IMG/VR virus record: IMGVR_UViG_3300031413_000570
Reading direction: 5' to 3' (one strand)
Length of the DNA: 64,000 nt
Origin: a virus
Lineage: Duplodnaviria > Heunggongvirae > Uroviricota > Caudoviricetes
Positions 2,311-62,816 of this stretch are shown here, one piece after another. The position numbers and the translations under genes were made by a program. Position 1 is the first letter of the stretch, and every line of letters starts with the position of its first letter. A model generated the notes under the pieces. The model saw only the letters and a list, made by a program, of their open reading frames with translations, was not told where the DNA came from and searched no databases.

Positions 2311-2946
2311 ATGAATACACCTAATATTGAAGCCCGTTACATCCTGCCTTCTTTTGAAGAGCGTACAGCTTATGGTATGAAGCAGCAGGACCCTTACGCT
2401 AAACTATTCAGTGAGCGTGTTGTCTTCTTGGGCGCCCAGGTTGATGATGTTTCTGCGAATGATGTGATGTCTCAGCTTTTGGTTCTTGAGGCTTTGGACC
2501 CTGATTCTGACATCACGATGTACATCAACTCTCCTGGTGGCTCTATGACTGCTCTAAGTGCGATTGTGGACACTATGGAGTACATTGGTCCTGATGTTGC
2601 TACTGTGTGTTTGGGTCAGGCTGCGTCTGCTGCTGCAGTGATTCTTGCTGCTGGAGCTCCTGGTAAGCGTGCTGCTTTGCCTAACGCCCGTGTGATGATT
2701 CATCAGCCGGCTACTGAAGGTACTCGTGGTCAGGCTTCTGACATTGAGATTCAGGCTGCTGAGATTTTCCGTATGCGTGCTTGGCTGGAGAACAGCCTTG
2801 CTGGTTACACTGGTCAGGATATTGATGTTGTTCGTCAGGATGTTGAGCGTGATAAGTTCTTGACTGGTCAGCAGGCTCTTGATTATGGCATTGTGGACAT
2901 GATTCTGCCTTCCCGTAAGAAAGCTCGTATGTTACGTGCAGCATAA
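2311..2946 (+). CDS. clpP2: ATP-dependent Clp protease proteolytic subunit (ClpP2-like)
   Basis: RYILPSFEERT N-terminus typical of actinobacterial ClpP2, [28 protein letters not shown]. Confidence 0.95.
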   Translation: MNTPNIEARYILPSFEERTAYGMKQQDPYAKLFSERVVFLGAQVDDVSANDVMSQLLVLEALDPDSDITMYINSPGGSMTALSAIVDTMEYIGPDVATVCLGQAASAAAVILAAGAPGKRAALPNARVMIHQPATEGTRGQASDIEIQAAEIFRMRAWLENSLAGYTGQDIDVVRQDVERDKFLTGQQALDYGIVDMILPSRKKARMLRAA

Positions 2947-5982: not shown

Positions 5983-6183
5983 GGGTAATTCCTAACCATT
6001 AGATGCTTTGAGATAAGCATATCATAGTGTTTCTGGATCACAAAATCCTTGAAAAATCAAGTAAATGAGAGTCATTATTTCTAAGATGTTAGAATTGAGA
6101 AGTGAAATCAACTGTATTGGTGAACGGATGCCACTGTTCCGATATTGAAATGGATACAGTTCGAACAGGAAGAAGACCCAATT

Positions 6184-6816
6184 ATGGTAGCAGTAGTTAC
6201 ATCTAACAACATTTACAGCCGAGACAACCGAGCTCCTGCACCTGCTGTGCATGAAGATGATGGTACGAACTTCCCTTGGCGTATGTTCTTTGATGAGAAC
6301 CAGCGTATTGTGGATGCTGACACTCTTGCTGAGTGTTTAGATTATCTCATCGTTGGCTATTCTGTGCTGAATGATGAAGAAAAAGCAGCTGCTCGTGAAG
6401 AGCTTGCTGGTCGTGTGCAACAGCTTGCACGTGCAACCATTGTTTCCTCTATTACCCCTGAGCAGGCTGAGAAGCTTGCTGACTGGGAATGGAACTTGTT
6501 GAACTTCGGTGATAACAACTTGCAGAACCCTTACGGTTGGGGTGACGGCACTGGTGTGATTGGTGAAGCTGATGAAGAGAAGATTGATGAATGGAACAGC
6601 ATCCATCCTTTGGTCCTTGTTGACACAAAGTACAAGCCTTTCACTGAAATCTTCCCACCTTTGTCAGGTGAAGGTGACTATGAAGAGGTGAAGAACATCA
6701 TCTGGTTGCGACCTAATGATGAGTTGGGTTTCTTGCGTTCATTGTCACGCATTGGTTATATCACTTTCGGAGCTCCTTCTGCTGTTGTTGCTTTGGAAGT
6801 TGCACGTAAGAACTAA
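6184..6816 (+). CDS. Conserved hypothetical protein (RDNRAP family), paralog of 40428..41027
   Basis: Shares RDNRAP-PAV, WRMF, AEKL-DWEW, EGDYEEVKN-IWLRP and FLRSLSRIGYI-FG with 40428..41027; ATG at 6184 preferred. Confidence 0.85.
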   Translation: MVAVVTSNNIYSRDNRAPAPAVHEDDGTNFPWRMFFDENQRIVDADTLAECLDYLIVGYSVLNDEEKAAAREELAGRVQQLARATIVSSITPEQAEKLADWEWNLLNFGDNNLQNPYGWGDGTGVIGEADEEKIDEWNSIHPLVLVDTKYKPFTEIFPPLSGEGDYEEVKNIIWLRPNDELGFLRSLSRIGYITFGAPSAVVALEVARKN

Positions 6817-6830
6817 AGTTTGAAAAAGAG

Positions 6831-6861
6831 AAAGGCCCCAACCGTTTTGGTTGGGGCCTTT
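6831..6861. terminator. Bidirectional terminator between convergent genes
   Basis: aaaggccccaacc / ggttggggccttt with A/T flanks. Confidence 0.85.
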
Positions 6862-6872
6862 TTTGGTTGCTG

Positions 6873-7343
6873 TTACCAGCTGACCACGCGCTCTCGGACG
6901 TGTTCAATCCAGTCACCAATTTCGATGACAGGAAGAGATGCCTGAACATCTGCTGTCATGCTCTGGCCTGCAATGTAAATCCAGGCTTTACGCTTTTCTC
7001 CACCGAGAGTGAACTCGTGAAGAATGCGGTCGTAGTGGTTTCGACCGTAGTCTTCACCGTGGTATCCTTCGAGGGAGTCCAATCGCTGCATGGTGGCTTC
7101 ATACTCATCAGACTTGATGTAGATGAGAGTTGCAGTGATGGTGTTCTCACCACGAGTGATGTAAGGGAACCCTGTACGACCGTACATGGTGAAACCTTCA
7201 AGACTAATGTCCTGCTCGCTAATGGTGTGACCCTGGAGGATGTAGTTATAGTTGTGGCAGGTAGGGCGAAGTGTTCCGTAAACAAGAACAGGATACTGTG
7301 CGTCAGTCATTGAGGCTAATGACCTTTCTAAATAGGTAGACAT
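6873..7343 (-). CDS. Gamma-glutamylcyclotransferase (AIG2-like) family protein
   Basis: VLVYGTLRP-HN signature, RLDSLEGY, KAWIY; start could be 7343 or 7310. Confidence 0.85.
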   Translation of the reverse strand: MSTYLERSLASMTDAQYPVLVYGTLRPTCHNYNYILQGHTISEQDISLEGFTMYGRTGFPYITRGENTITATLIYIKSDEYEATMQRLDSLEGYHGEDYGRNHYDRILHEFTLGGEKRKAWIYIAGQSMTADVQASLPVIEIGDWIEHVRERVVSW

Positions 7344-7500
7344 AATTGCGTATGTTTCTATTTTACCAGATGCTATAGATGCTGTCAAATCATGTATTTT
7401 AGTTACCGAGTTTTACTCAAAAATGATTGTTGGAAACGCAGATGTCTTTACACATTGCCGATAGTCATATAAGAGCAATCCTCTAACAGAAAGAATAAAT

Positions 7501-10500
7501 ATGTGTAATGCTATTCGTGATGGTGGGCAGCGTTGTCCAGTCCATCAGCACCACAACATTGCAGCTATCAAAGCAGCCTCCCATTTGAGTGGTTTGACCC
7601 GTCTGCAGACTGAGCGTTTATTCGCTGAGCTCCGCCGTGAAGGTCGTAACGCTGAACCTTTGACTAACCGCCTCCGTGCTGGTTCTTTACGTCGTATCCG
7701 TAACTCTGTTGCTGGAACTGATGTTGCTGAAGCTGTAGAATCCGAAATCGAACGATCACGTCAGCATGACACTGAGATTGACCCTGCAAGTGGTTATGCT
7801 CAGCGTGCTTTGTTGACTCGTTCCCGTGAACGTGCAGCTGCTTTGAATGCTCGTTTCGCTGAAGTTGCAACTCGTACTGGTTACACCCAGGAAGAAGTTG
7901 CAGCAAAGTACAAAGAATTCCGTAACGCTGTAGACACCAGTCGCGGTTCAGCTGTTCCTGCTGAATACGACCAGAACACTCGTCGTGCAGCAGTTCTTGC
8001 TAACCTTCCTTACGACCGTGCATCTGTTGTAGCTATCGAGAAGTTGAACACTCTTGCTCCAGCTGAAGAAGGTCGCCGTGTTGCTCTGCGTCCAGCCCCT
8101 GAAGGCTCACACATCAACTCCTACGGTTACGATGAAGGACGTATGGAAGTTGTCTTCAACAGCAACACTGACCGTATCTACGCTTACCAGAACGTTCCTG
8201 CTGAACTGTGGAACCGTTTCTCTGAAAGCGAATCACCTGGACGTATCTTCGCTCGTGAAATTCGCGGCGTAGGCGACTACCAGTACGCTTCTGAAGCAGC
8301 AGCTGAAGCTGACGCCCACCGTGTACGTTGTGGTTCCTGTGGACAGTTCCGTGCAGCTGCTCACTCCTGCCCTGAGCGTGAACAGCGTGAAGAGATTGCA
8401 ACTACTCTTATCACTGCTGGTCAAACACCAGCAGAAGTTGCAACATTCATCGCAGAGAACGTTGAAACACCTGAAGACATCCAGAACCAAGCTGCAGCGA
8501 CTGCCGCTTTCGAAGAATACCAGAACGACCTCGCTGCTGGGGTCTATGAAGCTTACGATGCAGAAGTTGAACCAGCTCCAACAGCTGAAGAAGTTGCTGC
8601 TGAAGCTGAAACACCTGTTGAGGATGCTCAGACCACTCCTGCTGCAGAAATTCCTGCCTACGACTTGAACGCTACGAACGGTTCGATTCTTACTGACCAG
8701 GACACTGGATACCTCAATCAGGTAGGTGTCGACAACGCTCCAGAAGCAACTGCTAACTACGTTTCAACAGTAGAAAACCAGCGTGAACCAGCAGCTTTGT
8801 CAACAGAAGCTATTTCTGTTGGGTCTGATGAGCTTCTTTCAAGAGTTCAAATTGCCAATAGCATGGACTCTTTGAACAACTACTACTACTGGAACCGCGA
8901 AGAGCTTGAAACCCATCTTGGTGCGGACACAATTGCTGAAATCGACAGCTCTCCAGAACACATTTACTACGTAGTTGGTGTACGTGAGGAAAGCGGAACT
9001 CCTGAAGTTCTTGCCAGCTACGACTCCCGTTACTACACTGGTAACTCCAACAACGCATGGGGAACTTCTGCTGCTAACTACCGTATGACTTACGGCTACA
9101 ACATCACTCGTAGAGGTTTCAAAGCTCCTGAGCAGACTTTTACTGAAGAAGAAAGAGATGCTTTAGTAGAAACTGAAACTACTCAACTTGCAGGTTTGGT
9201 TGAATCTGGTCAAGCTGTCCGAATTGAAGGTACAACTTCTGAAACTCGCAAGTATGTTGTAGACGGTAACAAAACTGACAACCGTTCAAAGCTTTATGTC
9301 CGTATGGGTAACGCTACTGCTTTCAAACGAGCTATTCGTGAGAACAAAGTAGTAATCATGCCTGTTTCCATGCGTCACCCTTACGGCGTCAACTCTGTTG
9401 ACGACCAGGGCTTCCATGTTGAAGCACGCAGCAACACTGAAGTTAAGGGTGAAATCGCTGTTCGTCGCAACAGTGAAGGTGTCATGGAAGTTATTAGCAC
9501 CGAACGTAAACTTCGTTGTAACTGCCGTGACTACCGCCTGAAGTACTACTGCCAGCATGTAAACTATGCTCAGCGTCACTTTGCTAACGTTGCACAGCAG
9601 ATGATTCCTGTTCCTCGTGCAGCTGTACCTGAAAGCGAACGTCCTCACCGCTTATTGACTCAGGCTCTGCATGACCGTGCAGACACCAGAGTTGTTGAGC
9701 CAGAGAACGAAGCTCCTTACATCAGTTTCGGTACAGAACTTTCTGGTGAAACTCGTTCAGGTAGCTATTGGCAGGCACGTAACTACGGTGAAATTCCAGC
9801 CGACTTACGTCCTGCAGACCCAGACAACATCACTCCTGATGAAGCAGCAAACTTGCAGGGCTTCAGCACCACTGTTGGAAACATCACCAACTTCTCTGTT
9901 CCTGTTGGTCCAGGTCAGTTGCGTACTGCTTTGCGTCGTGGTGATGTTGAAGTTCCTATTAGCATGAACTTCGGATGGCGTGGTTCCGTTGTTACCGGTT
10001 CACTTACCTTCAACCAGAACAGCTCTGCTGATTTGGAAGATTTGACTGTTCGTACCCGTAGCTTACGCTGTACTTGTGCTGCCTACCAGGAAAACTATGA
10101 CTGCGAACACGTACGTGCTGCTGCAGCTATGGGTCGTCCTCTTCTGGGTATTGGTTCTCGTACCATCACAAGCAACACTCCAAACTCAGTATACGTTGCT
10201 GAGAACCGTTACCGTAACGAAATGCGTGCACAGGCTGAAGTTGCTGGTTACATGGCTCGCGGTATGTCTCGTGAGGAAGCTCAGGCTGAAGTTGCAGCTG
10301 AACTTGCTCGTCGTCAGGCTGAGCAGGCTGAGTATGAAGAGCGTCGTGCCCGTGAGCGTGCTGAGTATGAAGAACGTCAGGCTGCTGCACGTAGAGCTGA
10401 AGTTGAACGCATGCGCTCAATGAACGCTGATGTTATCGCAGGTAACGAAACTTACCGTGCCAGCATGCTTGCACGTTGGGAAAATGTTGAAGAAACTTAT

Positions 10501-11544
10501 GCAGACAACCCTAAGCAGTTCTTCGATGACTACCAGGACACATTGCGTCGTAAGCGTGACGGTGAAGAAGTAATTCCTTTCCGTACAGAGAACGTTACTG
10601 ACGGTATCTGTGCTGATGAGCCTGGTGCTCGTGCGTTCGGTATTGAACTTGAGTTCGACATCAAACGTGGTGTGAACAAGTCTGAAGCTTTGCGTAAGAT
10701 TGGTCAGGAGCTTCACGCTGCTGGTCTTACCACCACTTCACAGCAGACTCGTTACCACTCTGCTCGTTCAAGCGGCTGGGCTAACTGGTCATTCGAGCAG
10801 GACTGTACTGTGGACGCTGAAATCGTTTCTCCTTTGATGAAGGACACTCCAGAACACTGGGAGCAGCTGAGAAAAGTTACAGAAATTGTTAACCGTAACG
10901 GTGGTATCGCTACCACACGTACAGGTTCTCACGTTCACGTGTCAACTGCTTCTTACGAAATGTCAAGTGCTAAGCATGCTGAGCTTCTTCGTACAGTGAA
11001 CAATAACGAAGACAACTTGTACCGTTTGGCTGCTAACCCTGCAACAGGTAAACACCGTGGAACACGTTGGTGTGCACCTAACGCAACTGACACAGCAAAC
11101 GACATTAGTGATGACGTGGCAGATGGACACCAGGTTCTTGGTTACAACCACAACAGCCATGGTGTTGGTTTGAACTTCGAAGGAACAGCAAGCACTACCT
11201 ACAAGAAGTCTAACATCGAGTTCCGTATGTGGGACGGTACAATGGACCCTGCTGTTATTCAGCAGCAGGTTGCCATCTCCGCCGCTATTACAGACTACGC
11301 TGAGCGTAAGGTTATTGTGGACAAGGTTTCTAAGAAGCCAGCTGCTGGCGACCGAGTAACTATTGGTACCAGCAAGCGTAAAGAAAAAGCTGTTCTTACT
11401 GCTGCTAACACAACAACTCACACAGAGGAAACTTTCAAAGAGTCCAGTGCCCAAGCTGCTGAGTTCTTTGACAAGTTGTTCCGTCGTAAAGAAGACCGTG
11501 CTGCTGCAGCGTCATTGTTCGCTGCAACTAACTGGCAGTCATAA
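7501..11544 (+). CDS. Giant multidomain protein: Cys leader, KTSC, Zn ribbon, two SWIM fingers, coiled coil, amidoligase (COOH-NH2 ligase type 2)
   Basis: MCNAIRDGGQRC; KTSC-like INSYGYDEGRMEVVF...YAYQNVP...SPGRIF (about 8100-8280); CGSCGQFRAAAHSC; CNC..CQH (9517-9558); CTC..CEH (10069-10110); FGIELEFD (10636), EIVSP, GSHVHVS, IEFRMWDGT. Confidence 0.85.
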   Translation: MCNAIRDGGQRCPVHQHHNIAAIKAASHLSGLTRLQTERLFAELRREGRNAEPLTNRLRAGSLRRIRNSVAGTDVAEAVESEIERSRQHDTEIDPASGYAQRALLTRSRERAAALNARFAEVATRTGYTQEEVAAKYKEFRNAVDTSRGSAVPAEYDQNTRRAAVLANLPYDRASVVAIEKLNTLAPAEEGRRVALRPAPEGSHINSYGYDEGRMEVVFNSNTDRIYAYQNVPAELWNRFSESESPGRIFAREIRGVGDYQYASEAAAEADAHRVRCGSCGQFRAAAHSCPEREQREEIATTLITAGQTPAEVATFIAENVETPEDIQNQAAATAAFEEYQNDLAAGVYEAYDAEVEPAPTAEEVAAEAETPVEDAQTTPAAEIPAYDLNATNGSILTDQDTGYLNQVGVDNAPEATANYVSTVENQREPAALSTEAISVGSDELLSRVQIANSMDSLNNYYYWNREELETHLGADTIAEIDSSPEHIYYVVGVREESGTPEVLASYDSRYYTGNSNNAWGTSAANYRMTYGYNITRRGFKAPEQTFTEEERDALVETETTQLAGLVESGQAVRIEGTTSETRKYVVDGNKTDNRSKLYVRMGNATAFKRAIRENKVVIMPVSMRHPYGVNSVDDQGFHVEARSNTEVKGEIAVRRNSEGVMEVISTERKLRCNCRDYRLKYYCQHVNYAQRHFANVAQQMIPVPRAAVPESERPHRLLTQALHDRADTRVVEPENEAPYISFGTELSGETRSGSYWQARNYGEIPADLRPADPDNITPDEAANLQGFSTTVGNITNFSVPVGPGQLRTALRRGDVEVPISMNFGWRGSVVTGSLTFNQNSSADLEDLTVRTRSLRCTCAAYQENYDCEHVRAAAAMGRPLLGIGSRTITSNTPNSVYVAENRYRNEMRAQAEVAGYMARGMSREEAQAEVAAELARRQAEQAEYEERRARERAEYEERQAAARRAEVERMRSMNADVIAGNETYRASMLARWENVEETYADNPKQFFDDYQDTLRRKRDGEEVIPFRTENVTDGICADEPGARAFGIELEFDIKRGVNKSEALRKIGQELHAAGLTTTSQQTRYHSARSSGWANWSFEQDCTVDAEIVSPLMKDTPEHWEQLRKVTEIVNRNGGIATTRTGSHVHVSTASYEMSSAKHAELLRTVNNNEDNLYRLAANPATGKHRGTRWCAPNATDTANDISDDVADGHQVLGYNHNSHGVGLNFEGTASTTYKKSNIEFRMWDGTMDPAVIQQQVAISAAITDYAERKVIVDKVSKKPAAGDRVTIGTSKRKEKAVLTAANTTTHTEETFKESSAQAAEFFDKLFRRKEDRAAAASLFAATNWQS

Positions 11545-11556
11545 TAATTGAATAGA

Positions 11557-11593
11557 AGAAATCCCCCTGGCAGGTTCTGTCAGGGGGATTTCT
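11557..11593. terminator. Bidirectional terminator
   Basis: agaaatccccctggcag / ctgtcagggggatttct between convergent genes. Confidence 0.85.
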
Positions 11594-12402
11594 CATTTCT
11601 CTAACTTCAGCATAGGAGAAGCCGGCTGGAGACTTTTTGCTTCCAGAAACTCCAAATGGGCTTGCATCTGGCTCAGCGAATGGGCGGTATTCTTCTGAAC
11701 GATACTACGAACCTGGTTTTCAATCAGGGTCAGCTGCTGCACCAGAATGTTAGCTGCCTGCTCAGTCACTTCAGGGGATACATTGCTGAGTCCATTGAAA
11801 AGCCGTAACGCTTCTGGGATGTAGGAGTTCACAACCTGCTCTAACGTGAAACTGTCTTCAACAGAGTTCTCTTGCTGCTGGGCAGTTGTAAGCAGGGATA
11901 CAAGAGAGTGTAACCTGTCGTTAGCTTCTTTGTGGTTCAAGTCAATGACAGTTTCAGTGTCTACACTTTTCTTTCTAGAAGGAGCCAGAATCTGAGGCCA
12001 GTAGTTCAGGTGGTCTCTCATCAATTTCACAATGTACTCATTGAACTCATCAATCAAGTAAGAAGGGTCACCCTGATCCAACATCTCAGTCCTCATGTAA
12101 CTGATTTGCTGAGGAAGACTCCTGTGAATGACTTCCCACAGAAGAAAAGCCTGAGGGTCCTTTAGCTGCTGCCTGTCAATGGTGGGGAGACGTGTGAAGA
12201 AATTCTGTAAAGTGCTTTTGCATCTTTTCTTCCATTTGTCGTCACCGAAAGCTGCTTGTCCGATGCGAGCTTCGAGAGTCTGATGAATTTCTTTAATCTC
12301 TTCGGGGGAAACTGTCCTAGTCCAAAGAACAGCTGTTTTAAACTCATCAGATGTAGATGAGTGTTGCTGTTGTTCAGCATTATTCTTCTTAAACCAGCTC
12401 AT
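11593..12402 (-). CDS. Hypothetical helical protein; C-terminus paralogous to 16307..17203 (XpaC-like)
   Basis: EQVVNSYIPEAL...SQMQAHLEFLEAK; TACAAT 7 nt upstream of ATG 12402 suggests a leaderless start. Confidence 0.7.
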   Translation of the reverse strand: MSWFKKNNAEQQQHSSTSDEFKTAVLWTRTVSPEEIKEIHQTLEARIGQAAFGDDKWKKRCKSTLQNFFTRLPTIDRQQLKDPQAFLLWEVIHRSLPQQISYMRTEMLDQGDPSYLIDEFNEYIVKLMRDHLNYWPQILAPSRKKSVDTETVIDLNHKEANDRLHSLVSLLTTAQQQENSVEDSFTLEQVVNSYIPEALRLFNGLSNVSPEVTEQAANILVQQLTLIENQVRSIVQKNTAHSLSQMQAHLEFLEAKSLQPASPMLKLEK

Positions 12403-12562
12403 AGCTTCCATTGTACCAAAAATACAACCTCTTTACAACCACACAATTTATCTGAGAGTTTTCTGGGAGTATGCTGTTTTAGCTAAAGTATGGGAGTAAT
12501 GACCGAACTACTTAACAACACATACTACAGTGTTTTACGGTAACAAAATGGAGGAACCACAA

Positions 12563-14492: not shown

Positions 14493-14939
14493 ATGACTAT
14501 CAAAGACACCCTCAAGGCTGACCTCACTAAGTTCCTCAAGGAGCGTAACGAGCTCGGCAAGACCACCCTCCGTGGCGTCCTCGGTGCTGTGGAGACTGCG
14601 GAGAAGTCCGGCAAGACTGCTGTCGAGTTCACTGACTCTCAGGTTCTGGAACTCCTTGGTCGTGAGGTGAAGAAGCGTCGTGAGACTGCTACCATCTACG
14701 CTGGGGCTGGTCAGGTTGAGCGTAGCGAGCGTGAGACTGCTGAGGCTGACCTCATCGCCAAGTACCTTCCTGCTCAGCTTGACCGTGAGGCAATTGAGAC
14801 TTTCGTAGACAACGCTGTTGCCGAGCTGGGTGCTGCTGCGAACATGGGTAAGGTCATGAAGCTTGTCACGCCTTTCACTAAGGGTCGTGCTGACGGCAAG
14901 CTTGTCAGCGAGATTGTTCGCAGCAAGCTTGACGTGTAA
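14493..14939 (+). CDS. GatB/YqeY domain protein
   Basis: LKADLTKFLKER...EVKKRRETA...RETAEADLIAKYLPAQL...MGKVMK...GRADGKLV. Confidence 0.9.
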   Translation: MTIKDTLKADLTKFLKERNELGKTTLRGVLGAVETAEKSGKTAVEFTDSQVLELLGREVKKRRETATIYAGAGQVERSERETAEADLIAKYLPAQLDREAIETFVDNAVAELGAAANMGKVMKLVTPFTKGRADGKLVSEIVRSKLDV

Positions 14940-37324: not shown

Positions 37325-40300
37325 TCAGTAGTAACCGTCGTCATCGTCATCGTCATCGTCATCATCGTAACTGTCATTATAGTTTTGCCAGTTGGTAACA
37401 GCAAACAATGAAGCAACTCTCTGACGGTCTTCCTGACGACGGAACAATCCATCGAAGAACTGAGGAGCTGAACCCATTGACTGCTCGAAAGTTTCACGTG
37501 TATGAGTACGGCTTGTGCCTAACAAAGTACGCTCTGCTGTACGAGCTGCACCAATACGTGAACGAGAAGCTGTCGGACGAGCTGATTCACCGTTGTTGAT
37601 TACGTTACGTTCAGCCTGGTCAGTCATTGCTGCTGAAACCATAATCTGTCGCTGAATAACAGCAGCATCCAGAGTAGCATCCCACATACGGAACTCAATG
37701 TTAGAACGGCTGTAATCAGATGAGTAGGTGCCTTCGAAGTTCATAGCATAGCTGTGAGACATATGGCTACCCAAAACGTTATGGCTACTTGACACATCAG
37801 CAGAAACGGTTTCACTTGTATCGTTTACGTTAGGTGCACACCAACGCATACCACGGTGGCTACCACGTGCAGGGTCTGTTGCCAAACGGTACATCATTTC
37901 GTCATTCTGGTTCACCTGACGTAACAGCTCAAGGTGCTTCGCAGGAGAAGACTCATAAGAGGCAGTGGAAATATGGACGTGAGAACCAGTACGAGTAGTA
38001 GCAACCCCACCGTTACGAGTAATAATCTCCAAAGCTGTCTTCAACTGGTTCCAGTGTTCAGGAGTGTCCTTCATGATTGGTGAGACTAACTCACCATGAA
38101 CAGTGCAGTCTTCTTCGAAGGACCAAGCACCCCAGCCGCTTGCACGAGCAGAGTGGTACTCCTGCTGGTAGTTCTCTTCAGTCAAACCAGCTTCGTAGAG
38201 TTCTTCAGCGATTTTACGTAATGATGTAGAACGGTTGTGACCACTTCCAATGTCGAACTCAAGTTCGATACCGAATGCACGAGCACCAGGCTCATCAGCA
38301 CAAATACCGTCAGTGACGTTCTCTGTACGGAAGTCCATGTACTCTTCACCAGCACGCTTGCGACGGAGAGTTTCACGATAGTCTTCGTACAAAGCGTCGA
38401 CGTTCCCAGTGTAACCAGGCTCTTCTTCTTCCCAGCGAGCCATCATACGAGTACGGTACTCATCGCTGGTAGCTACGACAGTAGCATTTCGTGTACGCAA
38501 AGTTTCAGCTTCACGCAGACCACGTTCCATGTTGATTCGTTCACGTTCAGCCTGAGAAGCACGGTAGTAACGTTCCTGCTCTTCACGCTGTCTCTGCTGC
38601 TCAGCACGCTCTTCTTCAGCTAACTCAATAGCTCTTGCACGGTCAACACCAGCGGTACGCATACGGTTACGAATACGCTCCTCATCCTGAACAGCAACAG
38701 AATGACGGTTGATGTAAGAAGTGTAATGCTCCCCTTCAACAAAACGACGGCTACGGTTGGTCAAGAACACATAAGGGTTACGGGCAGTTGCACGCACATG
38801 AACACAGTCGTAGTTTTCCTGATAATCAGCACAAGTACATTTCAGGTGGCGTTCACGAATAATAGCGTCTTCAAGAGTTTCGCCTTCAGCCAAACGGCCA
38901 ATCTGGATGGTTCCAGAGACAGTGCTTGATGGCAACATTCTGTTAGCAGTATCAGGTGAAGTCATTCGGTTGAATTCTGCAGAAACAGGCATTGAGAAGT
39001 CAGCACGGTGCAAATTGTCTCGGACTACGTTGATGTAATGCAAAGTTGTCACAGTTGACAAAGCATTGAACGCATCACGAGTTTCAATCATTACCTCAAG
39101 TTCTTCAGCCGTAGGATTATCCCTATCGAAGAAAGCACGGGTGAATGTAGAAGGTCTACGGTTCTGCATACTGCCAGTGTGAGCTCTGAATGTCTCATGC
39201 TCAGTAAACTCTTCACCTAAGTTCACAACATGGCGAGTAGTTCCGTCTGGAGCCTGAGAAGTTGATGCTGTACCAAATGGCAGTCTCTCCTGGAAGTCTG
39301 CACTCGCAACATACTCAGCAACTTCTTCTTCTGAAGCAGACGAAGCATAATCAACACGGGTTAAGTCTTCTACTACGAAAGCAGCTTCAGGAACCTCAGG
39401 AGACACTCCAGCGTCCAAAGCTTCTTGAATGTTCTCTGCAGGGGTCCCAAAAGCAGCTAAGTTGTTTCGAGCTGCTCTTTCTGGGCAGTTGTGTCGCTGA
39501 GCTCGGAATTGTCCACAAGAAGCGCAACGTAACACATATCCGTCTGCTTCAGCTGCTTCAGGACTATCATAGGTGTATTCAGAGTTTCCTCTGATGCTTC
39601 TGCTGTATACAGAACCTGGACGCTGAGCTGAACGCAATCGTTCATATAACGCCTCAGGTACGTTCTGGTAAGCGTAGAAGGTTTCTGGTTCATGCTGGAA
39701 AGAGACTTCCAAACGACCTTCATGGTAACCAACAAAAGCTAAATTGGTGCTGTTGATTGGTTCATGGTTCTCAATGCGAGCCTGACGGTTATCAGGAGAA
39801 ACAAGAGTGCGTACACGCTCTAACGCAACAACAGAGGAACGGTCGTAAGGAAGACCTGCTCTTCTTTGACGCTGAGTTGCTGCAGCAGTATGTTCTACCG
39901 GCATTTCTACGTTGTTACCAGTAGGAACAGCATCATACTCTTCATAGTATTTAGCTTGAACTTCTTCAAGAGTGTAACCTGTACGGTCGGCAACAGATTG
40001 TAGTTCAGCTTTGAGAGCTTCGGCTTTTCTTTTAGAAATTTCAACCAAATGCGTTAGAGCATAGGATGTAGCCTGGTCAGGTTCTTCGTTCCAACGGTCA
40101 GCAATTCTCATCTGACGTTCATACGCGGTCAGATCGTTAGCTTCTTCAGCAACAACCCGGAGGTTGTCAATTGCCTGCTGGCGAGCTGCTGGAGAGATTT
40201 CTGTAATATCCGCTCCTTCTCTGCGAAGTTCACGGAAAGTATTCTCTACCTGACGACGCTGCAGACCAGTGGCGGCTACGACTGCACGAATACCAGCGAT

Positions 40301-48515: not shown

Positions 48516-49955
48516 TTATGCCAAGTTATTCTTAATCCAGGCCAAACCAGATTCACGGGTGCGGAAGCCATCCGCATATTGAGCTGCTCGGGCTTCGTCC
48601 AAAGAAATTCTCATCCAAGGACCTGGACGACGGTCAGGGAACAACGCCATCAAGTCTTCACCTTTGACCAAATCAGGTTCAGGTCCATCAAGAAGACCTA
48701 AAGTGTGGGCTGTGTTCTGAATACGTTCTGCTTTTTCAGTCTCACCACGAGATTTAGCCAGGTAAACCCAATCCTGAATGGTGTTGTGACGGGTCAAAGA
48801 CTTAGCCCAGTGTCTCATCGTCGCTTTCTCTTCGTCCTCAGGAAGCTTCAGACGAGAAAGGTTGTAAGCACCGTTCTTAGCATCATCCCCGATAGTTGTG
48901 TAGCTGAGGAAACTCTTAGCATCATTATCATTCAAATGTGAAGCAATGTTTGCTGACAAAACGTAAGCATACTTACTCTTAGGAATTGTTCCATCGTCAG
49001 CTAACGCCTGAGTCCTTTGCAAATTCTGACCCAATTTTCCATCATTGGCTTCAGCTAATCCACTGAAGTTAGCATCCCAGCCAGTAGACTTCAGCAGTTG
49101 GAAAGCTTTGTGAGGAGCTTTACCTTTTGAGTAGAGTTTCTCAAACTCAGTTTGAACACGCTCTTTAGCTAAATCCTGGAACTGTGGCTGTAAAGTCTGG
49201 GCTTTCACAACAGTGTCAGGGTGAAGCTCCATGTCGAAACGAGAAGCCATCTGAACTCCACGAAGAACACGCAAAGGGTCTTCATCAAAAGCATCAGAGA
49301 TGTGACGCAGTTGCTTTTTGTCTAAGTCTTCAAGACCTTCATGCTTGTCGATGATGTACCCAAGCTGATTATCATACATCAAAGCGTTGATGGTGAAATC
49401 ACGACGAGCTGTTGCTTCATACATTGAAAGCTCTGGAAGCAGTTCAGTGGTGAAGCCTCGATGACCGTCACCCACTTTAGAATCTTTACGAGGAAGGGAC
49501 ACATCAAAGTCTTCTCCCCCGATTTGGATTTTAAGCACACCGAAAGATTTGCCTACTTCATCAACTTGCCCAATTTTACGCAAAGAGGCAACAACTTCTT
49601 CAGGGGTAGCTTTGTACACTTCGATGTCAACATCTTTGGAGTCAAGTCCCAACAACGCATCACGAACGCTTCCACCTACAACGTAAGGTTCATAACCGTC
49701 TTCACGTAACTGGTTCAAGACACGCTGTGCATTCTCGGTGAGTTCCATGGAATAGGCACGGATTTTACCGCCATCAGCAGTCAGATGAGCTTTCTTCTCT
49801 CGAAGTTTCTCCATCTCATCGGTGATACTGGCAACACGATCAGTATTACCTTGCTTAGCATGGTACTGCTTCTGGGCTTGCAAATTCCTTACGTGAATGC
49901 CGAACGCGTTATCTGAGTTGCAACGGCGTCCACCGTCTTCTAATTTTCTACACAT
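48516..49955 (-). CDS. cca: Class II tRNA nucleotidyltransferase (CCA-adding-like) with Cys-rich leader
   Basis: MCRKLEDGGRRC leader; VGGSVRD, DVDIE, RRDFTINA, EDPLRVLRG, ERVQTEFEK. Confidence 0.85.
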   Translation of the reverse strand: MCRKLEDGGRRCNSDNAFGIHVRNLQAQKQYHAKQGNTDRVASITDEMEKLREKKAHLTADGGKIRAYSMELTENAQRVLNQLREDGYEPYVVGGSVRDALLGLDSKDVDIEVYKATPEEVVASLRKIGQVDEVGKSFGVLKIQIGGEDFDVSLPRKDSKVGDGHRGFTTELLPELSMYEATARRDFTINALMYDNQLGYIIDKHEGLEDLDKKQLRHISDAFDEDPLRVLRGVQMASRFDMELHPDTVVKAQTLQPQFQDLAKERVQTEFEKLYSKGKAPHKAFQLLKSTGWDANFSGLAEANDGKLGQNLQRTQALADDGTIPKSKYAYVLSANIASHLNDNDAKSFLSYTTIGDDAKNGAYNLSRLKLPEDEEKATMRHWAKSLTRHNTIQDWVYLAKSRGETEKAERIQNTAHTLGLLDGPEPDLVKGEDLMALFPDRRPGPWMRISLDEARAAQYADGFRTRESGLAWIKNNLA

Positions 49956-59745: not shown

Positions 59746-60324
59746 TTACAGCCATCCTGCAACAATAAGTTTCTTTTTCGCTGGTGTTGTGTAGATTCGA
59801 AGGTTACTAAGGAACTGTTTCGTGCTGTGAGCAGTAACTGGTATCCCAAGTTCTTTTGATAAGCCTGACATCATAGATGACGTATCCGGCTCGCACCAAC
59901 CCATCATGTCAGCGTCCCTCATAATTTGCTCAACAGGTCGATACATTTGCCTGCCAGGATTTTCTGTTGCCTGGATAAGCTGCTTCAAATAAGCTGGTGT
60001 CAACTTGCATTCAACAGAGAAGAACACTTCATAAAAATCAATGAACTTCAAAGCTTTGCGGATGTTGTCAGAGTCAGGACCAGCTGTACCAGTATGGTCA
60101 TAGTCATGGAAGATACCAGCAACCAGAAGATGTCGTAAATCGTAAGAGTTGTAACCGAGTTGGACACCGATGTCGTAAGCATTTACTGCAAACACATAAT
60201 TATGTTCATTGTTGTGATACGGCAAAGAAGCCGCAGGGTTCCTGGATGCAAGTTTCAAGATACCAGTAACAGGTAACTCTGCTTCTTGCAAACGGGAACG
60301 CACTGCGGCTTCTAAGCGGCTCAT
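59746..60324 (-). CDS. HD-domain phosphohydrolase
   Basis: PYHNNEH, FHDYDH, MRDAD. Confidence 0.8.
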   Translation of the reverse strand: MSRLEAAVRSRLQEAELPVTGILKLASRNPAASLPYHNNEHNYVFAVNAYDIGVQLGYNSYDLRHLLVAGIFHDYDHTGTAGPDSDNIRKALKFIDFYEVFFSVECKLTPAYLKQLIQATENPGRQMYRPVEQIMRDADMMGWCEPDTSSMMSGLSKELGIPVTAHSTKQFLSNLRIYTTPAKKKLIVAGWL

Positions 60325-62816
60325 GCTTCCAAAGCCTCCGTGGAGCCAATCTTGTCACGGGTAACGCCATTGAAGGTCAACGCTCCGTCAACGAAATCAA
60401 CCACGACAGCTTTGTTTTCAGTGAACATATCGAACAACAGCATCTCACTGACACCATCTTCCACAAGCTGCTGCATGGCACGACGCAAAGGACGAGCGCC
60501 CAACGACTGGTCGTAACCAACAGTCACGACATGCTTTTTGGCAGCTTCAGTCAAATCGACTGTAACACCAGCAGTGGCAAGACGTACATTCAGACGGGCA
60601 ATGAATACGTCAATGATTTCAACAAGCTCTTCAGTGTTCAGGTGAGGGAACACAACAATGTCGTCAAGGCGGTTCAAGAACTCAGGCTTGAATTCCTGCT
60701 TCAGCTCTGTCAGAACTTTGTTCTTCATTGTGTTGTACGTTGCACCTGTGTCACCCAGAACCTGGAATCCGACAGACCCAGAAGCAATCTGACGTGCACC
60801 AAGGTTGGTTGTCATGATGATGATGGTGTTCTTGAAATCAATCACTCGACCCTGACCGTCAGTAAGACGACCTTCTTCAAGGACCTGCAAAAGCGGGTTG
60901 AAGATGTCAGGATGAGCTTTCTCAATCTCATCAAACAGAATTACGCTGTAAGGCTTACGACGAACACGTTCAGTCAACTGGCCGCCTTCTTCATGTCCAA
61001 CATACCCAGGAGGAGCTCCGAACAGACGAGAAACAGTGTGCTTCTCACCGTACTCGGACATGTCCAACGAGATGAGTGCAGAGTCTTCGTGGAACAAGAA
61101 CTCAGCAAGAGCTTTCGCAAGCTCAGTCTTACCCACACCGGTAGGTCCAGCGAAGATGAACGAACCAGCAGGACGGTTAGGGTCTTTCAACCCTGCACGC
61201 TGACGGCGAACAGTCTTAGAGATAGCCTGAATAGCAGCTTTCTGTCCAATCACTCGGGCAGCCAGCTCAGTTTCCATGCTCATGAGACGCTTGCTGTCAT
61301 CAGTCAGCAAGGTAACAGGGATGCCTGTAGCAGCAGTCAGAACAGCAGCAATCTCAACATCGGTGACAAGGGTAGGCTCATCTGAGGTGGTGTTCTTCTG
61401 TACTTCAGCAGAGATAGCTTCTTTCAGCTTGCTCTCCTGAGCTCTTAAGTCAGCTGCAAGAAGGAAGTCTTCAGCTGCAATAGCTGTTTCTTTCTTTGTA
61501 ATCAGACCAACAAGCTCCAGCTCAAGCTCTTTCACTTCAGGAGGAGTGCTAAGGCGATTGATTTTGGCACGGGCTCCAGCTTCATCCATCAAGTCAATGG
61601 CTTTGTCAGGAAGGAAGCGGTCAGGAACGTAGCGGGAAGAAAGAGTGACAGAAGCTTCGATAGCTTTGTCAGTCAAAGTGATGTTGTGGTGCTTCTCATA
61701 TTCGCTACGCAGACCTTTCAGAATCTGGACAGCTTCAAGGATAGTAGGCTCAACAACATCAACCTGCTGGAAACGACGAGCCATGGCTGCATCTTTTTCG
61801 AAGTGCTTACGGTACTCATCGTAAGTTGTCGCACCGATTGTCTGCATCTCACCACGAGCCAGCACAGGCTTCAGAATGTTAGCAGCGTTCAGTGAACCCT
61901 CTCCACCACCAGCAGTGATGAGAGAATGGATTTCGTCAATGAACACAATGACGTTCGAATCCTGAATTTCCTGAACAAGTTTCTTCAGACGCTGCTCAAA
62001 ATCACCACGATATTTTGTTCCAGCAAGGATACCGGCTAAGTCAAGCGACCATACATCACGCTCTTTCACCGAGTCGGGAAGACTGTCAGAGTTCAGCAAA
62101 GCCTGAGCTAATCCTTCAACGATAGCTGTTTTACCGACACCAGGCTCACCAACAAGGATAGGGTTGTTCTTGGTTCGACGGGAGAGCACCTGAAGAGTAC
62201 GCTCAATTTCTTTACTTCGACCAACAACAGGGTCAAGCTTTCCTTCACGGGCAAGCTGTGAAAGGTTTGTGGCGAACTGTTCAAGGGTAGCAGTCTTCTT
62301 ATTCGAACCAGCCAGACTTACTGGAGAACCTGGTGCAGTGGTACCCGCGAACATAGGAGCATCTTCAGGAGCACGCTCTTCACCATCATTGGCTTTGATG
62401 CTTGCCAGCACAACAGTCTCCAGCTGAGCAATGTCCACTGCAAGCATTGTCAGGCAGCGGTAAGCGTGTGACTCAGTGTTTCGAAGTACAGAGAGAATGA
62501 GAAAATCAGTTGTTACTTTCTTCTTACCCCCGATGTTGAGAGCGAAGAAGAAAGACTTCTCGATGATGTTCTTAGTGTCCTGATCGAAACCAGGAGCAGT
62601 ATTACTGTTCCCAGTTGGAGCATAGGCGGTGGCGATAACCTGAGCTAATGTCTCAGTGGTAACACCAACGGAGTCAAACTTTGCTTTAGTGCTGGGGTGT
62701 TCGGTAAGAGCAAGAAGAATGTATTCACTTCCAGTCTGACCAGCTCCAGCTTCAGTAGCAAGGGCGATGGCTCGGCGGATAATCTGACTTGTGGTGTCCG
62801 TAAAACGGTCGTTCAT
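60321..62816 (-). CDS. clpC: ClpC-type Hsp100 ATPase
   Basis: Clp-N repeats, GEPGVGKT, FIDEIH, UVR-like M domain, GPTGVGKT, DMSEY, SVGF ClpP-docking loop, GARPLRR. Confidence 0.95.
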   Translation of the reverse strand: MNDRFTDTTSQIIRRAIALATEAGAGQTGSEYILLALTEHPSTKAKFDSVGVTTETLAQVIATAYAPTGNSNTAPGFDQDTKNIIEKSFFFALNIGGKKKVTTDFLILSVLRNTESHAYRCLTMLAVDIAQLETVVLASIKANDGEERAPEDAPMFAGTTAPGSPVSLAGSNKKTATLEQFATNLSQLAREGKLDPVVGRSKEIERTLQVLSRRTKNNPILVGEPGVGKTAIVEGLAQALLNSDSLPDSVKERDVWSLDLAGILAGTKYRGDFEQRLKKLVQEIQDSNVIVFIDEIHSLITAGGGEGSLNAANILKPVLARGEMQTIGATTYDEYRKHFEKDAAMARRFQQVDVVEPTILEAVQILKGLRSEYEKHHNITLTDKAIEASVTLSSRYVPDRFLPDKAIDLMDEAGARAKINRLSTPPEVKELELELVGLITKKETAIAAEDFLLAADLRAQESKLKEAISAEVQKNTTSDEPTLVTDVEIAAVLTAATGIPVTLLTDDSKRLMSMETELAARVIGQKAAIQAISKTVRRQRAGLKDPNRPAGSFIFAGPTGVGKTELAKALAEFLFHEDSALISLDMSEYGEKHTVSRLFGAPPGYVGHEEGGQLTERVRRKPYSVILFDEIEKAHPDIFNPLLQVLEEGRLTDGQGRVIDFKNTIIIMTTNLGARQIASGSVGFQVLGDTGATYNTMKNKVLTELKQEFKPEFLNRLDDIVVFPHLNTEELVEIIDVFIARLNVRLATAGVTVDLTEAAKKHVVTVGYDQSLGARPLRRAMQQLVEDGVSEMLLFDMFTENKAVVVDFVDGALTFNGVTRDKIGSTEALEA

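Follow-up and report, generated by a model that had tools for sequence, protein, structure and literature searches.

A giant amidoligase with putative targeting modules and a constant partner protein in a phage-like element: a candidate amine-directed ligase

In the current analysis we have studied positions 6184-11544 of a viral DNA stretch of 64,000 nt (IMG/VR record IMGVR_UViG_3300031413_000570), the whole of which is referred to here as the window. This span encodes a giant ligase, an acidic partner protein of about 200 residues and a protein resembling gamma-glutamylamine cyclotransferase (GGACT). On its modelled structure, the C-terminal region of the ligase is a carboxylate-amine ligase of the glutamine synthetase (GS) and glutamate-cysteine ligase (GCL) type. 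The constant companion of the ligase is the 200-residue partner and not GGACT. The fold, the chemistry of GGACT, the roughly 1000 residues of conserved and diversifying modules, the paralogs and tandem arrays, the partner and the avoidance of lysine taken together therefore support best the reading of a targeted ligase. We tentatively propose that it is a gamma-glutamyl-type ligase acting on amines, probably those of protein lysines, and that GGACT can serve it as an eraser but need not be present.

Catalytic domain of the ligase

Residues 1044-1263 of the ligase match the Amidoligase_2 family (PF12224) with 36.9 bits against a threshold of 22, over positions 3-244 of the 245 in the profile. 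The protein is also assigned to PHROG 2443, 'amidoligase' (E-value 3.7e-8). An AF2 model of residues 985-1347 (pLDDT 91.5, pTM 0.93) has been compared with known structures, and the top 50 Foldseek matches are all GS or GCS2/YbdK proteins, the best with an E-value of 4e-5. Re-alignment with VIA gives a Z of 13.7 for plant glutamate-cysteine ligase (2gwc; 259 residues, root mean square deviation 4.2 Å), 13.6-13.7 for YbdK (1tt4/1r8g) and about 13 for many GS chains, with 226 chains at Z of at least 8. A GS homolog of the gamma-glutamyl-polyamine type (4hpp) and an arylamine GS (8x6z) are among the close structures. An earlier interpretation of this DNA, made without database searches and called here the sequence-only reading, had proposed a C-terminus of GS/GCS-like fold, and the structure prediction bears this out. 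PDB sequence-profile searches with the middle and C-terminal regions gave no meaningful match and no GS relative, and NCBIfam and PADLOC gave no match for the ligase or for GGACT.

Comparison with nine relatives, down to 17-25% identity, has revealed the invariant residues F1046, G1047, E1049, E1051, G1075, W1096, D1101, E1107, S1110, P1111, G1134, G1142, H1144, V1145, N1225, E1240 and R1242. E1049, E1051, D1101, E1107, H1144, N1225, E1240 and R1242 are also invariant across 35 family members. The acidic, histidine and arginine residues of this set probably serve as metal or ATP ligands, and the domain looks enzymatically active. To our knowledge, every characterised enzyme of the GS/GCL fold (GS, GCL, YbdK, PuuA and PafA) joins glutamate to an amine after activating its gamma-carboxylate. 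By analogy, the C-terminal domain would use ATP to phosphorylate a carboxylate, which is most likely that at the gamma position of glutamate, and would then transfer it to a primary amine.

The partner protein

The sequence-only reading began its span at 6184, which is the ATG of the partner gene 6184-6816(+), and left this gene undescribed. The partner has no match in Pfam, PHROG, PADLOC or NCBIfam, and an Atlas search with it returned nothing usable. Exhaustive searching with HMMER, starting from a profile of the partner, has identified 363 representative clusters at an E-value of 1e-3 or below, of about 170-220 residues, none of them with a Pfam family. Two partners are encoded in the window, of 210 and 199 residues, each beside its own ligase.

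The partner adjoins the long form of the ligase in six distinct loci and lies about 7.5 kb from it in elements of 0.88 Mb. Where the long form is most distant (two cases), the partner gene directly follows that of the ligase, and it lies directly upstream of every short form. All four of the distant partners sampled are found beside a gene with the same N-terminal region and an amidoligase; one of these is a 662-residue ligase form without SWIM and another ends at the edge of its contig. The partner thus accompanies every ligase with this N-terminal region that could be checked, that is, in loci with enough flanking sequence. It is absent at 70-odd loci with simpler amidoligases, which comprise simple phage amidoligases and SWIM-amidoligases of the gut.

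Distances among partners and among ligases co-vary (r 0.89-0.95 over 78 pairs), and each paralog therefore keeps its own partner. In a mirror-tree comparison all regions of the ligase co-vary with the partner, and the region that is tracked is not discriminated. The conserved columns of 59 diverse partners are of structural type only (G27, Y59, R71, W137, several prolines and leucines), and there is no conserved Lys, Cys, His, Ser, Asp or Glu column among them. This makes it unlikely that the partner is an enzyme, or that it serves as a substrate modified at a fixed residue. Complex prediction with ligase residues 800-1347 scored 0.00, which is not evidence in either direction. The co-inheritance of this acidic protein with the ligase suggests a non-catalytic cognate subunit, which may act as adaptor, chaperone or inhibitor.

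N-terminal and targeting modules

The domain organisation given by the sequence-only reading, namely a Cys leader, a KTSC domain, a CxxC-H-C ribbon, two SWIM fingers and an amidoligase in a protein of 1347 residues, has held: the Pfam matches are above gathering thresholds, and the proposed metal ligands of the leader (C2, C12 and H15), the ribbon and both SWIM signatures are invariant in 35 homologs of 32-95% identity. KTSC (PF13619) is assigned to residues 203-256 with 41.4 bits against a gathering threshold of 25 (E-value 1.2e-10). The family profile matches this region in the PDB with 7x8c (E-value 1.9e-8), 4rgi and residues 631-692 of 8wiv_A, the last being the C-terminus of a HerA-type chain. 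SWIM (PF04434) is assigned to two stretches with 26.1 bits against 19.6. The signature CxCxnCxH is present in two copies, with all eight ligands invariant.

An AF2 model of residues 555-900 (pLDDT 89.9) consists of two alpha/beta modules, each with a terminal SWIM finger and only weakly similar to each other. The top AFDB match of module A is an 882-residue SWIM-type protein. For the SWIM region 555-900 there was no Foldseek match in the PDB, and the best match in the wide VIA search (Z 4.8) is at noise level. Residues 21-195 have no relative in PDB or Atlas searches, and an Atlas search with the N-terminus returned nothing usable.

The first 12 residues of the leader (MC-x5-GG-x-RC, 7501-7536) are common to the ligases and to the CCA-adding enzyme encoded at 48516-49955(-), where they lie at 49920-49955. 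The similarity ends after these 12 residues.

A macromolecular target would be chosen by the leader, KTSC and zinc-ribbon region together with the SWIM modules, of which there are one or two. The sequence-only reading had taken this architecture to be directed at nucleic acids, a view based on the names of the domains. The net charge is -3 for KTSC, -2 for the ribbon, +1 for SWIM module B and about -43 for the whole ligase; binding by KTSC is a prediction, and SWIM domains also take part in protein contacts. The modules being neutral or acidic, the targeting of nucleic acids is therefore unsupported.

Avoidance of lysine

The long ligase contains 2.5% lysine and 9.1% arginine and the short paralog 1.0% and 10.7%, against medians of 5.9% and 4.7% for the 63 open reading frames (ORFs) of the window. 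Residues 1-990 of the long form have 13 lysines against 98 arginines, despite a negative net charge. Averaged over the family, the charged segment has 0.9% lysine and 18.8% arginine, the stretch separating the SWIM modules 1.1% and 9.3%, the first 300 residues 2.3% and 11.4%, and the amidoligase domain 5.4% and 7.0%. The contrast is also seen in relatives from loci of 36-48% GC. The arginine codons of the ligase are mostly CGT in a gene of 49% GC, and the depletion is therefore not a relic of high GC content.

Lysine avoidance spans the amidoligases of mobile elements. The SWIM-amidoligases of gut elements (27% GC) have 4-5.7% lysine against 8-12% in their neighbours, and rank last among all ORFs for K/(K+R) in each of the gut metagenome loci examined (17 of 17; L061-L087). 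Simple phage amidoligases have a milder bias. In the window GGACT (2.3% lysine) and the partner (3.3%) are only mildly low. Two large lysine-poor proteins beside distant homologs (L005, L059) were examined and set aside as conserved surface-type repeat proteins that are merely syntenic.

Together with the constant partner, these observations suggest, but fall short of proving, that glutamate-like tags are placed on the amines of other proteins. The likeliest acceptor would be the epsilon-amine of lysine in target proteins, and the depletion outside the catalytic domain may protect the ligase from modifying itself.

The GGACT neighbour

GGACT is assigned to PF06094 with 62.3 bits against 22.8 and to PHROG 2520, in agreement with the divergent GGCT (gamma-glutamyl cyclotransferase) neighbour named by the sequence-only reading. 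Y22, G23, T24 and L25 (YGTL) and E92 (D-x-L-E-G) are invariant in ten sequences comprising orthologs and phage relatives. No match to PDB sequences was obtained. The gene is divergent from the ligase gene and 112-157 bp upstream of it. A near-consensus promoter-like site (7388..7360, - strand) lies inside the ORF 6873-7388(-); the true start is therefore likely to be the ATG at 7343 and not the TTG at 7388, and the resulting 156 residues match the orthologs.

GGACT enzymes cleave L-gamma-glutamyl-amines and require a gamma-glutamyl group with a free alpha-amine. In the present module GGACT may remove gamma-glutamyl groups from amines as 5-oxoproline, which would make the mark reversible in the GGACT-bearing clade only. 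The linkage of amidoligase with AIG2/GGCT noted by the sequence-only reading does recur, in phages, in Clostridium prophages and in the transposon Tn6164, and several IMG/VR loci also show the pair. GGACT is, however, not the defining neighbour of the giant ligase. It is found beside the long form only within a clade of 44-99% identity, and in the loci fetched neither of the two most distant long forms has it, nor does any short form. Reversal by GGACT is therefore not essential. One lineage has a gene for a 633-residue DUF4379 (zinc-ribbon) protein between GGACT and the ligase (L003:4044-5945, -).

Relatives and paralogs

A word-indexed search has identified about 45 full-length relatives of 1300-1435 residues and 32-95% identity, nearly all metagenomic and many on contigs of 0.5-0.88 Mb. 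Two public metagenome-assembled genome records carry full-length relatives labelled merely 'amidoligase family protein'. There is no full-length relative in IMG/VR, where only short and distant amidoligases occur, nor in the phage and plasmid collections, and species-representative genomes, scanned with partner and N-terminal patterns, contain no relatives. Megablast of positions 6000-12500 against phage and plasmid collections gave no match. DNA from this stretch is found again in metagenomes of the phyllosphere, of plants and of straw. Three phyllosphere RNA libraries have contigs covering parts of the partner, GGACT and ligase genes; carry-over of DNA is possible, and these contigs are weak evidence of expression.

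The short paralog of the window is 42-51% identical to the long ligase. Its C-terminus (37325-37370, -) has ten Asp in a row followed by GYY, a tail that is not present in the long form. Giant ligase genes also occur in tandem: three in a row on a contig of 5.8 kb (L048:1-5848), and two in a row behind one partner gene (L098:7630-14567).

Proposed role and alternative explanations

The module may thus be a targeted amide-bond ligase system on giant phage-like elements of plant-surface bacteria. Several observations weigh against this reading. The substrate that it assumes is putative. Neither the short forms nor the most distant of the long forms carry GGACT, and lysine is at a normal level (5.4%) in the catalytic domain of the long form. 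Lysine avoidance could also reflect evasion of a lysine-directed tagging by the host, a polyamine-like amine pocket or an inherited composition. A pairing with GGACT is seen as well for simple phage amidoligases that have no targeting domain, as would be expected of small-molecule chemistry, and the partner has no conserved acceptor residue.

The proposal can be extended to a reversible protein-modification system not described so far, made up of the ligase, the 200-residue partner and, in one clade, GGACT, which would mark lysines of host or element proteins. The SWIM modules of the paralogs would aim at different targets, and the lysines of the ligases would have been purged against self-marking. 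In this extended form we consider the proposal somewhat unlikely.

Small-molecule chemistry is one alternative. The ligase might make gamma-glutamyl amines, for example from polyamines, and GGACT recycle them, the zinc-finger modules merely serving to localise or regulate the enzyme. Phage amidoligases of 270-390 residues without a targeting domain are found near GGACT genes and, in the literature, near GATase genes; the closest structures include YbdK, GCL, 4hpp and 8x6z, and an alkylamine pocket would also account for the avoidance of lysine. We regard this as unlikely, since some 1000 residues of non-catalytic modules that are conserved yet diversifying, the differing paralogs, the tandem arrays and the cognate partner are hard to fit with it. 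In the opposite polarity of the reaction, the ligase would activate a carboxylate of the target protein, either at its C-terminus or in the side chain of a Glu or Asp, and would add a small amine or amino acid to it. This reading shares with the targeted gamma-glutamyl ligase the fold, the targeting modules and the lysine depletion, which here would prevent self-crosslinking. PafA, a GS-like ligase, does activate a protein-borne glutamate. The free alpha-amine required by GGACT, however, fits a free glutamate donor better than a protein-borne carboxylate, and we hold this polarity to be improbable. PafA and Dop chains are not among the top structural matches listed for the C-terminal model, an observation that does not weigh in either direction.

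Nucleic acids as the target appear highly improbable to us. KTSC, ribbon and SWIM would then bind DNA, RNA or tRNA, and the ligase would modify a base amine, an aminoacyl-tRNA or a protein bound to nucleic acid. Comparative-genomics papers do predict KTSC to be RNA- or DNA-binding, and DNA methyltransferases occur near the ligase in the window and beside the gut relatives. In several elements the long form has a YqeY/GatB-C-like gene in its vicinity, and the window encodes genes for tRNA and RNA repair. But the putative binding modules and the ligase as a whole carry the neutral to acidic charges given above, no experimental nucleic-acid binding by KTSC was found in the literature, and the YqeY and methylase links are inseparable from synteny among related elements.

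The YqeY/GatB-C-like gene is located at 14493-14939 (+) in the window, at L003:10135-10587, L052:12062-12526 and L001:11676-12164 in other elements, and is directly adjacent to the ligase in two of the elements. It could hint at a link to tRNA or reflect mere synteny.

Features of the window

Table 1. Features of the ligase module and of its paralogous copy (positions are those of the window)
Feature	Position	Strand	Remarks
Partner protein gene	6184..6816	+	210 aa, acidic, without known family; ATG at 6184
Bidirectional terminator-like hairpin, 17-bp stem	6828..6864		between the convergent partner and GGACT genes
AIG2/GGACT-like gamma-glutamyl(amine) cyclotransferase	6873..7343	-	156 aa from ATG 7343; PF06094 E 8e-17, PHROG 2520 E 9e-20
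Amidoligase gene, 1347 aa	7501-11544	+	ORF confirmed
Cys-Cys-His leader (MCNAIRDGGQRCPVHQH)	7501..7560	+	M1, C2, G8, G9, R11, C12, H15 invariant
Arg-rich conserved region, residues 21-195, unassigned fold	7561..8085	+	conserved blocks among relatives
KTSC domain, residues 196-262	8086..8286	+	PF13619
Zinc ribbon C277-x2-C280 ... H288-x-C290	8287..8400	+	four ligands invariant in 35 homologs
Acidic linker, residues 301-555, poorly conserved	8401..9165	+	net charge -36, 1 Lys
SWIM module A, alpha/beta, ends C673-x-C675 ... C684-x-H686	9166..9615	+	Pfam; absent from short paralog
SWIM module B, C857-x-C859 ... C868-x-H870	9901..10155	+	common to short form and gut SWIM-amidoligases
Charged Arg/Glu/Ala/Gln segment, residues 886-990	10156..10470	+	0 Lys, 18 Arg; coiled coil of the sequence-only reading
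Amidoligase_2 domain and conserved C-terminal tail	10471..11544	+	Pfam; AF2 pLDDT 91.5
Terminator-like hairpin, 17-bp stem	11557..11593		3' of ligase gene
Short ligase paralog, 1010 aa	37325..40357	-	leader, KTSC, ribbon, one SWIM module, amidoligase
Partner paralog, 199 aa	40428..41027	-	directly upstream of short ligase; 55% identical to the 6184-6816 product

Profile searches have identified exactly two ligases, two partners and one GGACT in the window (Table 1). The window also encodes DnaG, topoisomerase II subunits, several DNA methyltransferases, the CCA enzyme and a polynucleotide kinase, which together with the ClpP pair are in keeping with a giant phage-like element. A ClpP1/ClpP2 pair is encoded at 1703-2308 and 2311-2946 (+), both assigned to PF00574 with E-values of about 1e-70. 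A gene at 60321-62816 (-) specifies a large ATPase of the Clp/Lon type (PHROG 4871). From these assignments the element seems to carry its own protease machine.

Convergent with the ligase is a gene for 272 residues at 11593-12411 (-) with no family match. The two 17-bp-stem hairpins of Table 1 close the pairs of convergent genes. The 272-residue gene is conserved 3' of the long form in L001, L047, L050 and L051 (33-35% identity), and a second, distant copy lies a few kb off.

Comparison with known systems

Phages, prophages and transposons often encode Amidoligase_2 enzymes. The type 2 COOH-NH2 ligases of phages and mobile elements were reportedly defined by comparative genomics in the work of Iyer et al. 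2009, and the catalytic family and its linkage to GGCT are already known from such studies. In the searchable literature we have found no biochemical study of any Amidoligase_2 enzyme, and no description of the giant leader-KTSC-ribbon-SWIM architecture, of the obligatory partner family or of lysine avoidance. A Klebsiella 'amidoligase' paper considered as relevant concerns an ATP-grasp enzyme and is unrelated. The interpretation given by the sequence-only reading is thus partly supported: no paper describing the architecture that it did not recognise was found, but the core of SWIM plus amidoligase is not unique to the giant ligase and is also present in proteins of 470-480 residues from mobile elements of the gut. 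The cognate partner, the lysine avoidance pointing to an amine-directed and probably lysine-directed chemistry, and the candidate eraser provide handles for a first study of these enzymes. If true, the targeted-ligase reading would add a new enzymatic protein mark to the biology of phage-host conflict, and would explain a gene pair annotated in many phage genomes just as 'amidoligase' and 'gamma-glutamyl cyclotransferase'.

The giant ligase resembles the simple members of Amidoligase_2 (PF12224, PHROG 2443) in its full-profile match and its GS/GCL-like fold. It also has an AIG2/GGCT gene beside it, an arrangement known from Clostridium prophages and Tn6164. The giant ligase is three to four times longer, with the addition of the Cys leader, KTSC, ribbon, acidic linker, two SWIM modules and charged segment, and has an obligatory partner of 200 residues that the simple loci lack. 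With GCL, YbdK (GCS2) and GS, its best structural matches (Z 13-13.7 over about 250 aligned residues), it would share the ATP-dependent activation of the gamma-carboxylate of glutamate, although the sequence identity is only 10-14% and the giant ligase is fused to its putative targeting modules.

The likeness to PafA/Dop of Actinobacteria is no more than an analogy. There, gamma-glutamyl-lysine isopeptides are formed by a ligase of GS type, which is paired with a reversing enzyme. In the present system no Pup-like tag gene has been recognised, and the proposed eraser has the GGACT fold and is not a paralog of the ligase. The polyvalent proteins (Iyer et al. 2017, PMC5512222) are also large multidomain proteins of mobile elements with paralogs, tandem copies and a conflict-type neighbourhood. 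They are defined by several unrelated effector domains in one giant protein that is delivered with the DNA, whereas just one catalytic domain has been found in the giant ligase by Pfam and PHROG. The paper on polyvalent proteins mentions neither amidoligase nor KTSC domains.

The SWIM-plus-Amidoligase_2 proteins of gut Firmicutes (for example L063:7512-8963 and L075:7536-8960; 474-483 residues) differ from the giant ligase in having no leader, KTSC, ribbon, second SWIM module or partner gene, and in the flanks examined GGACT is usually absent. Common to both are SWIM module B, a charged helix of short length and the catalytic domain with its C-terminal tail, alignable at about 25% identity, as well as the avoidance of lysine, for the gut proteins in comparison with their neighbours.

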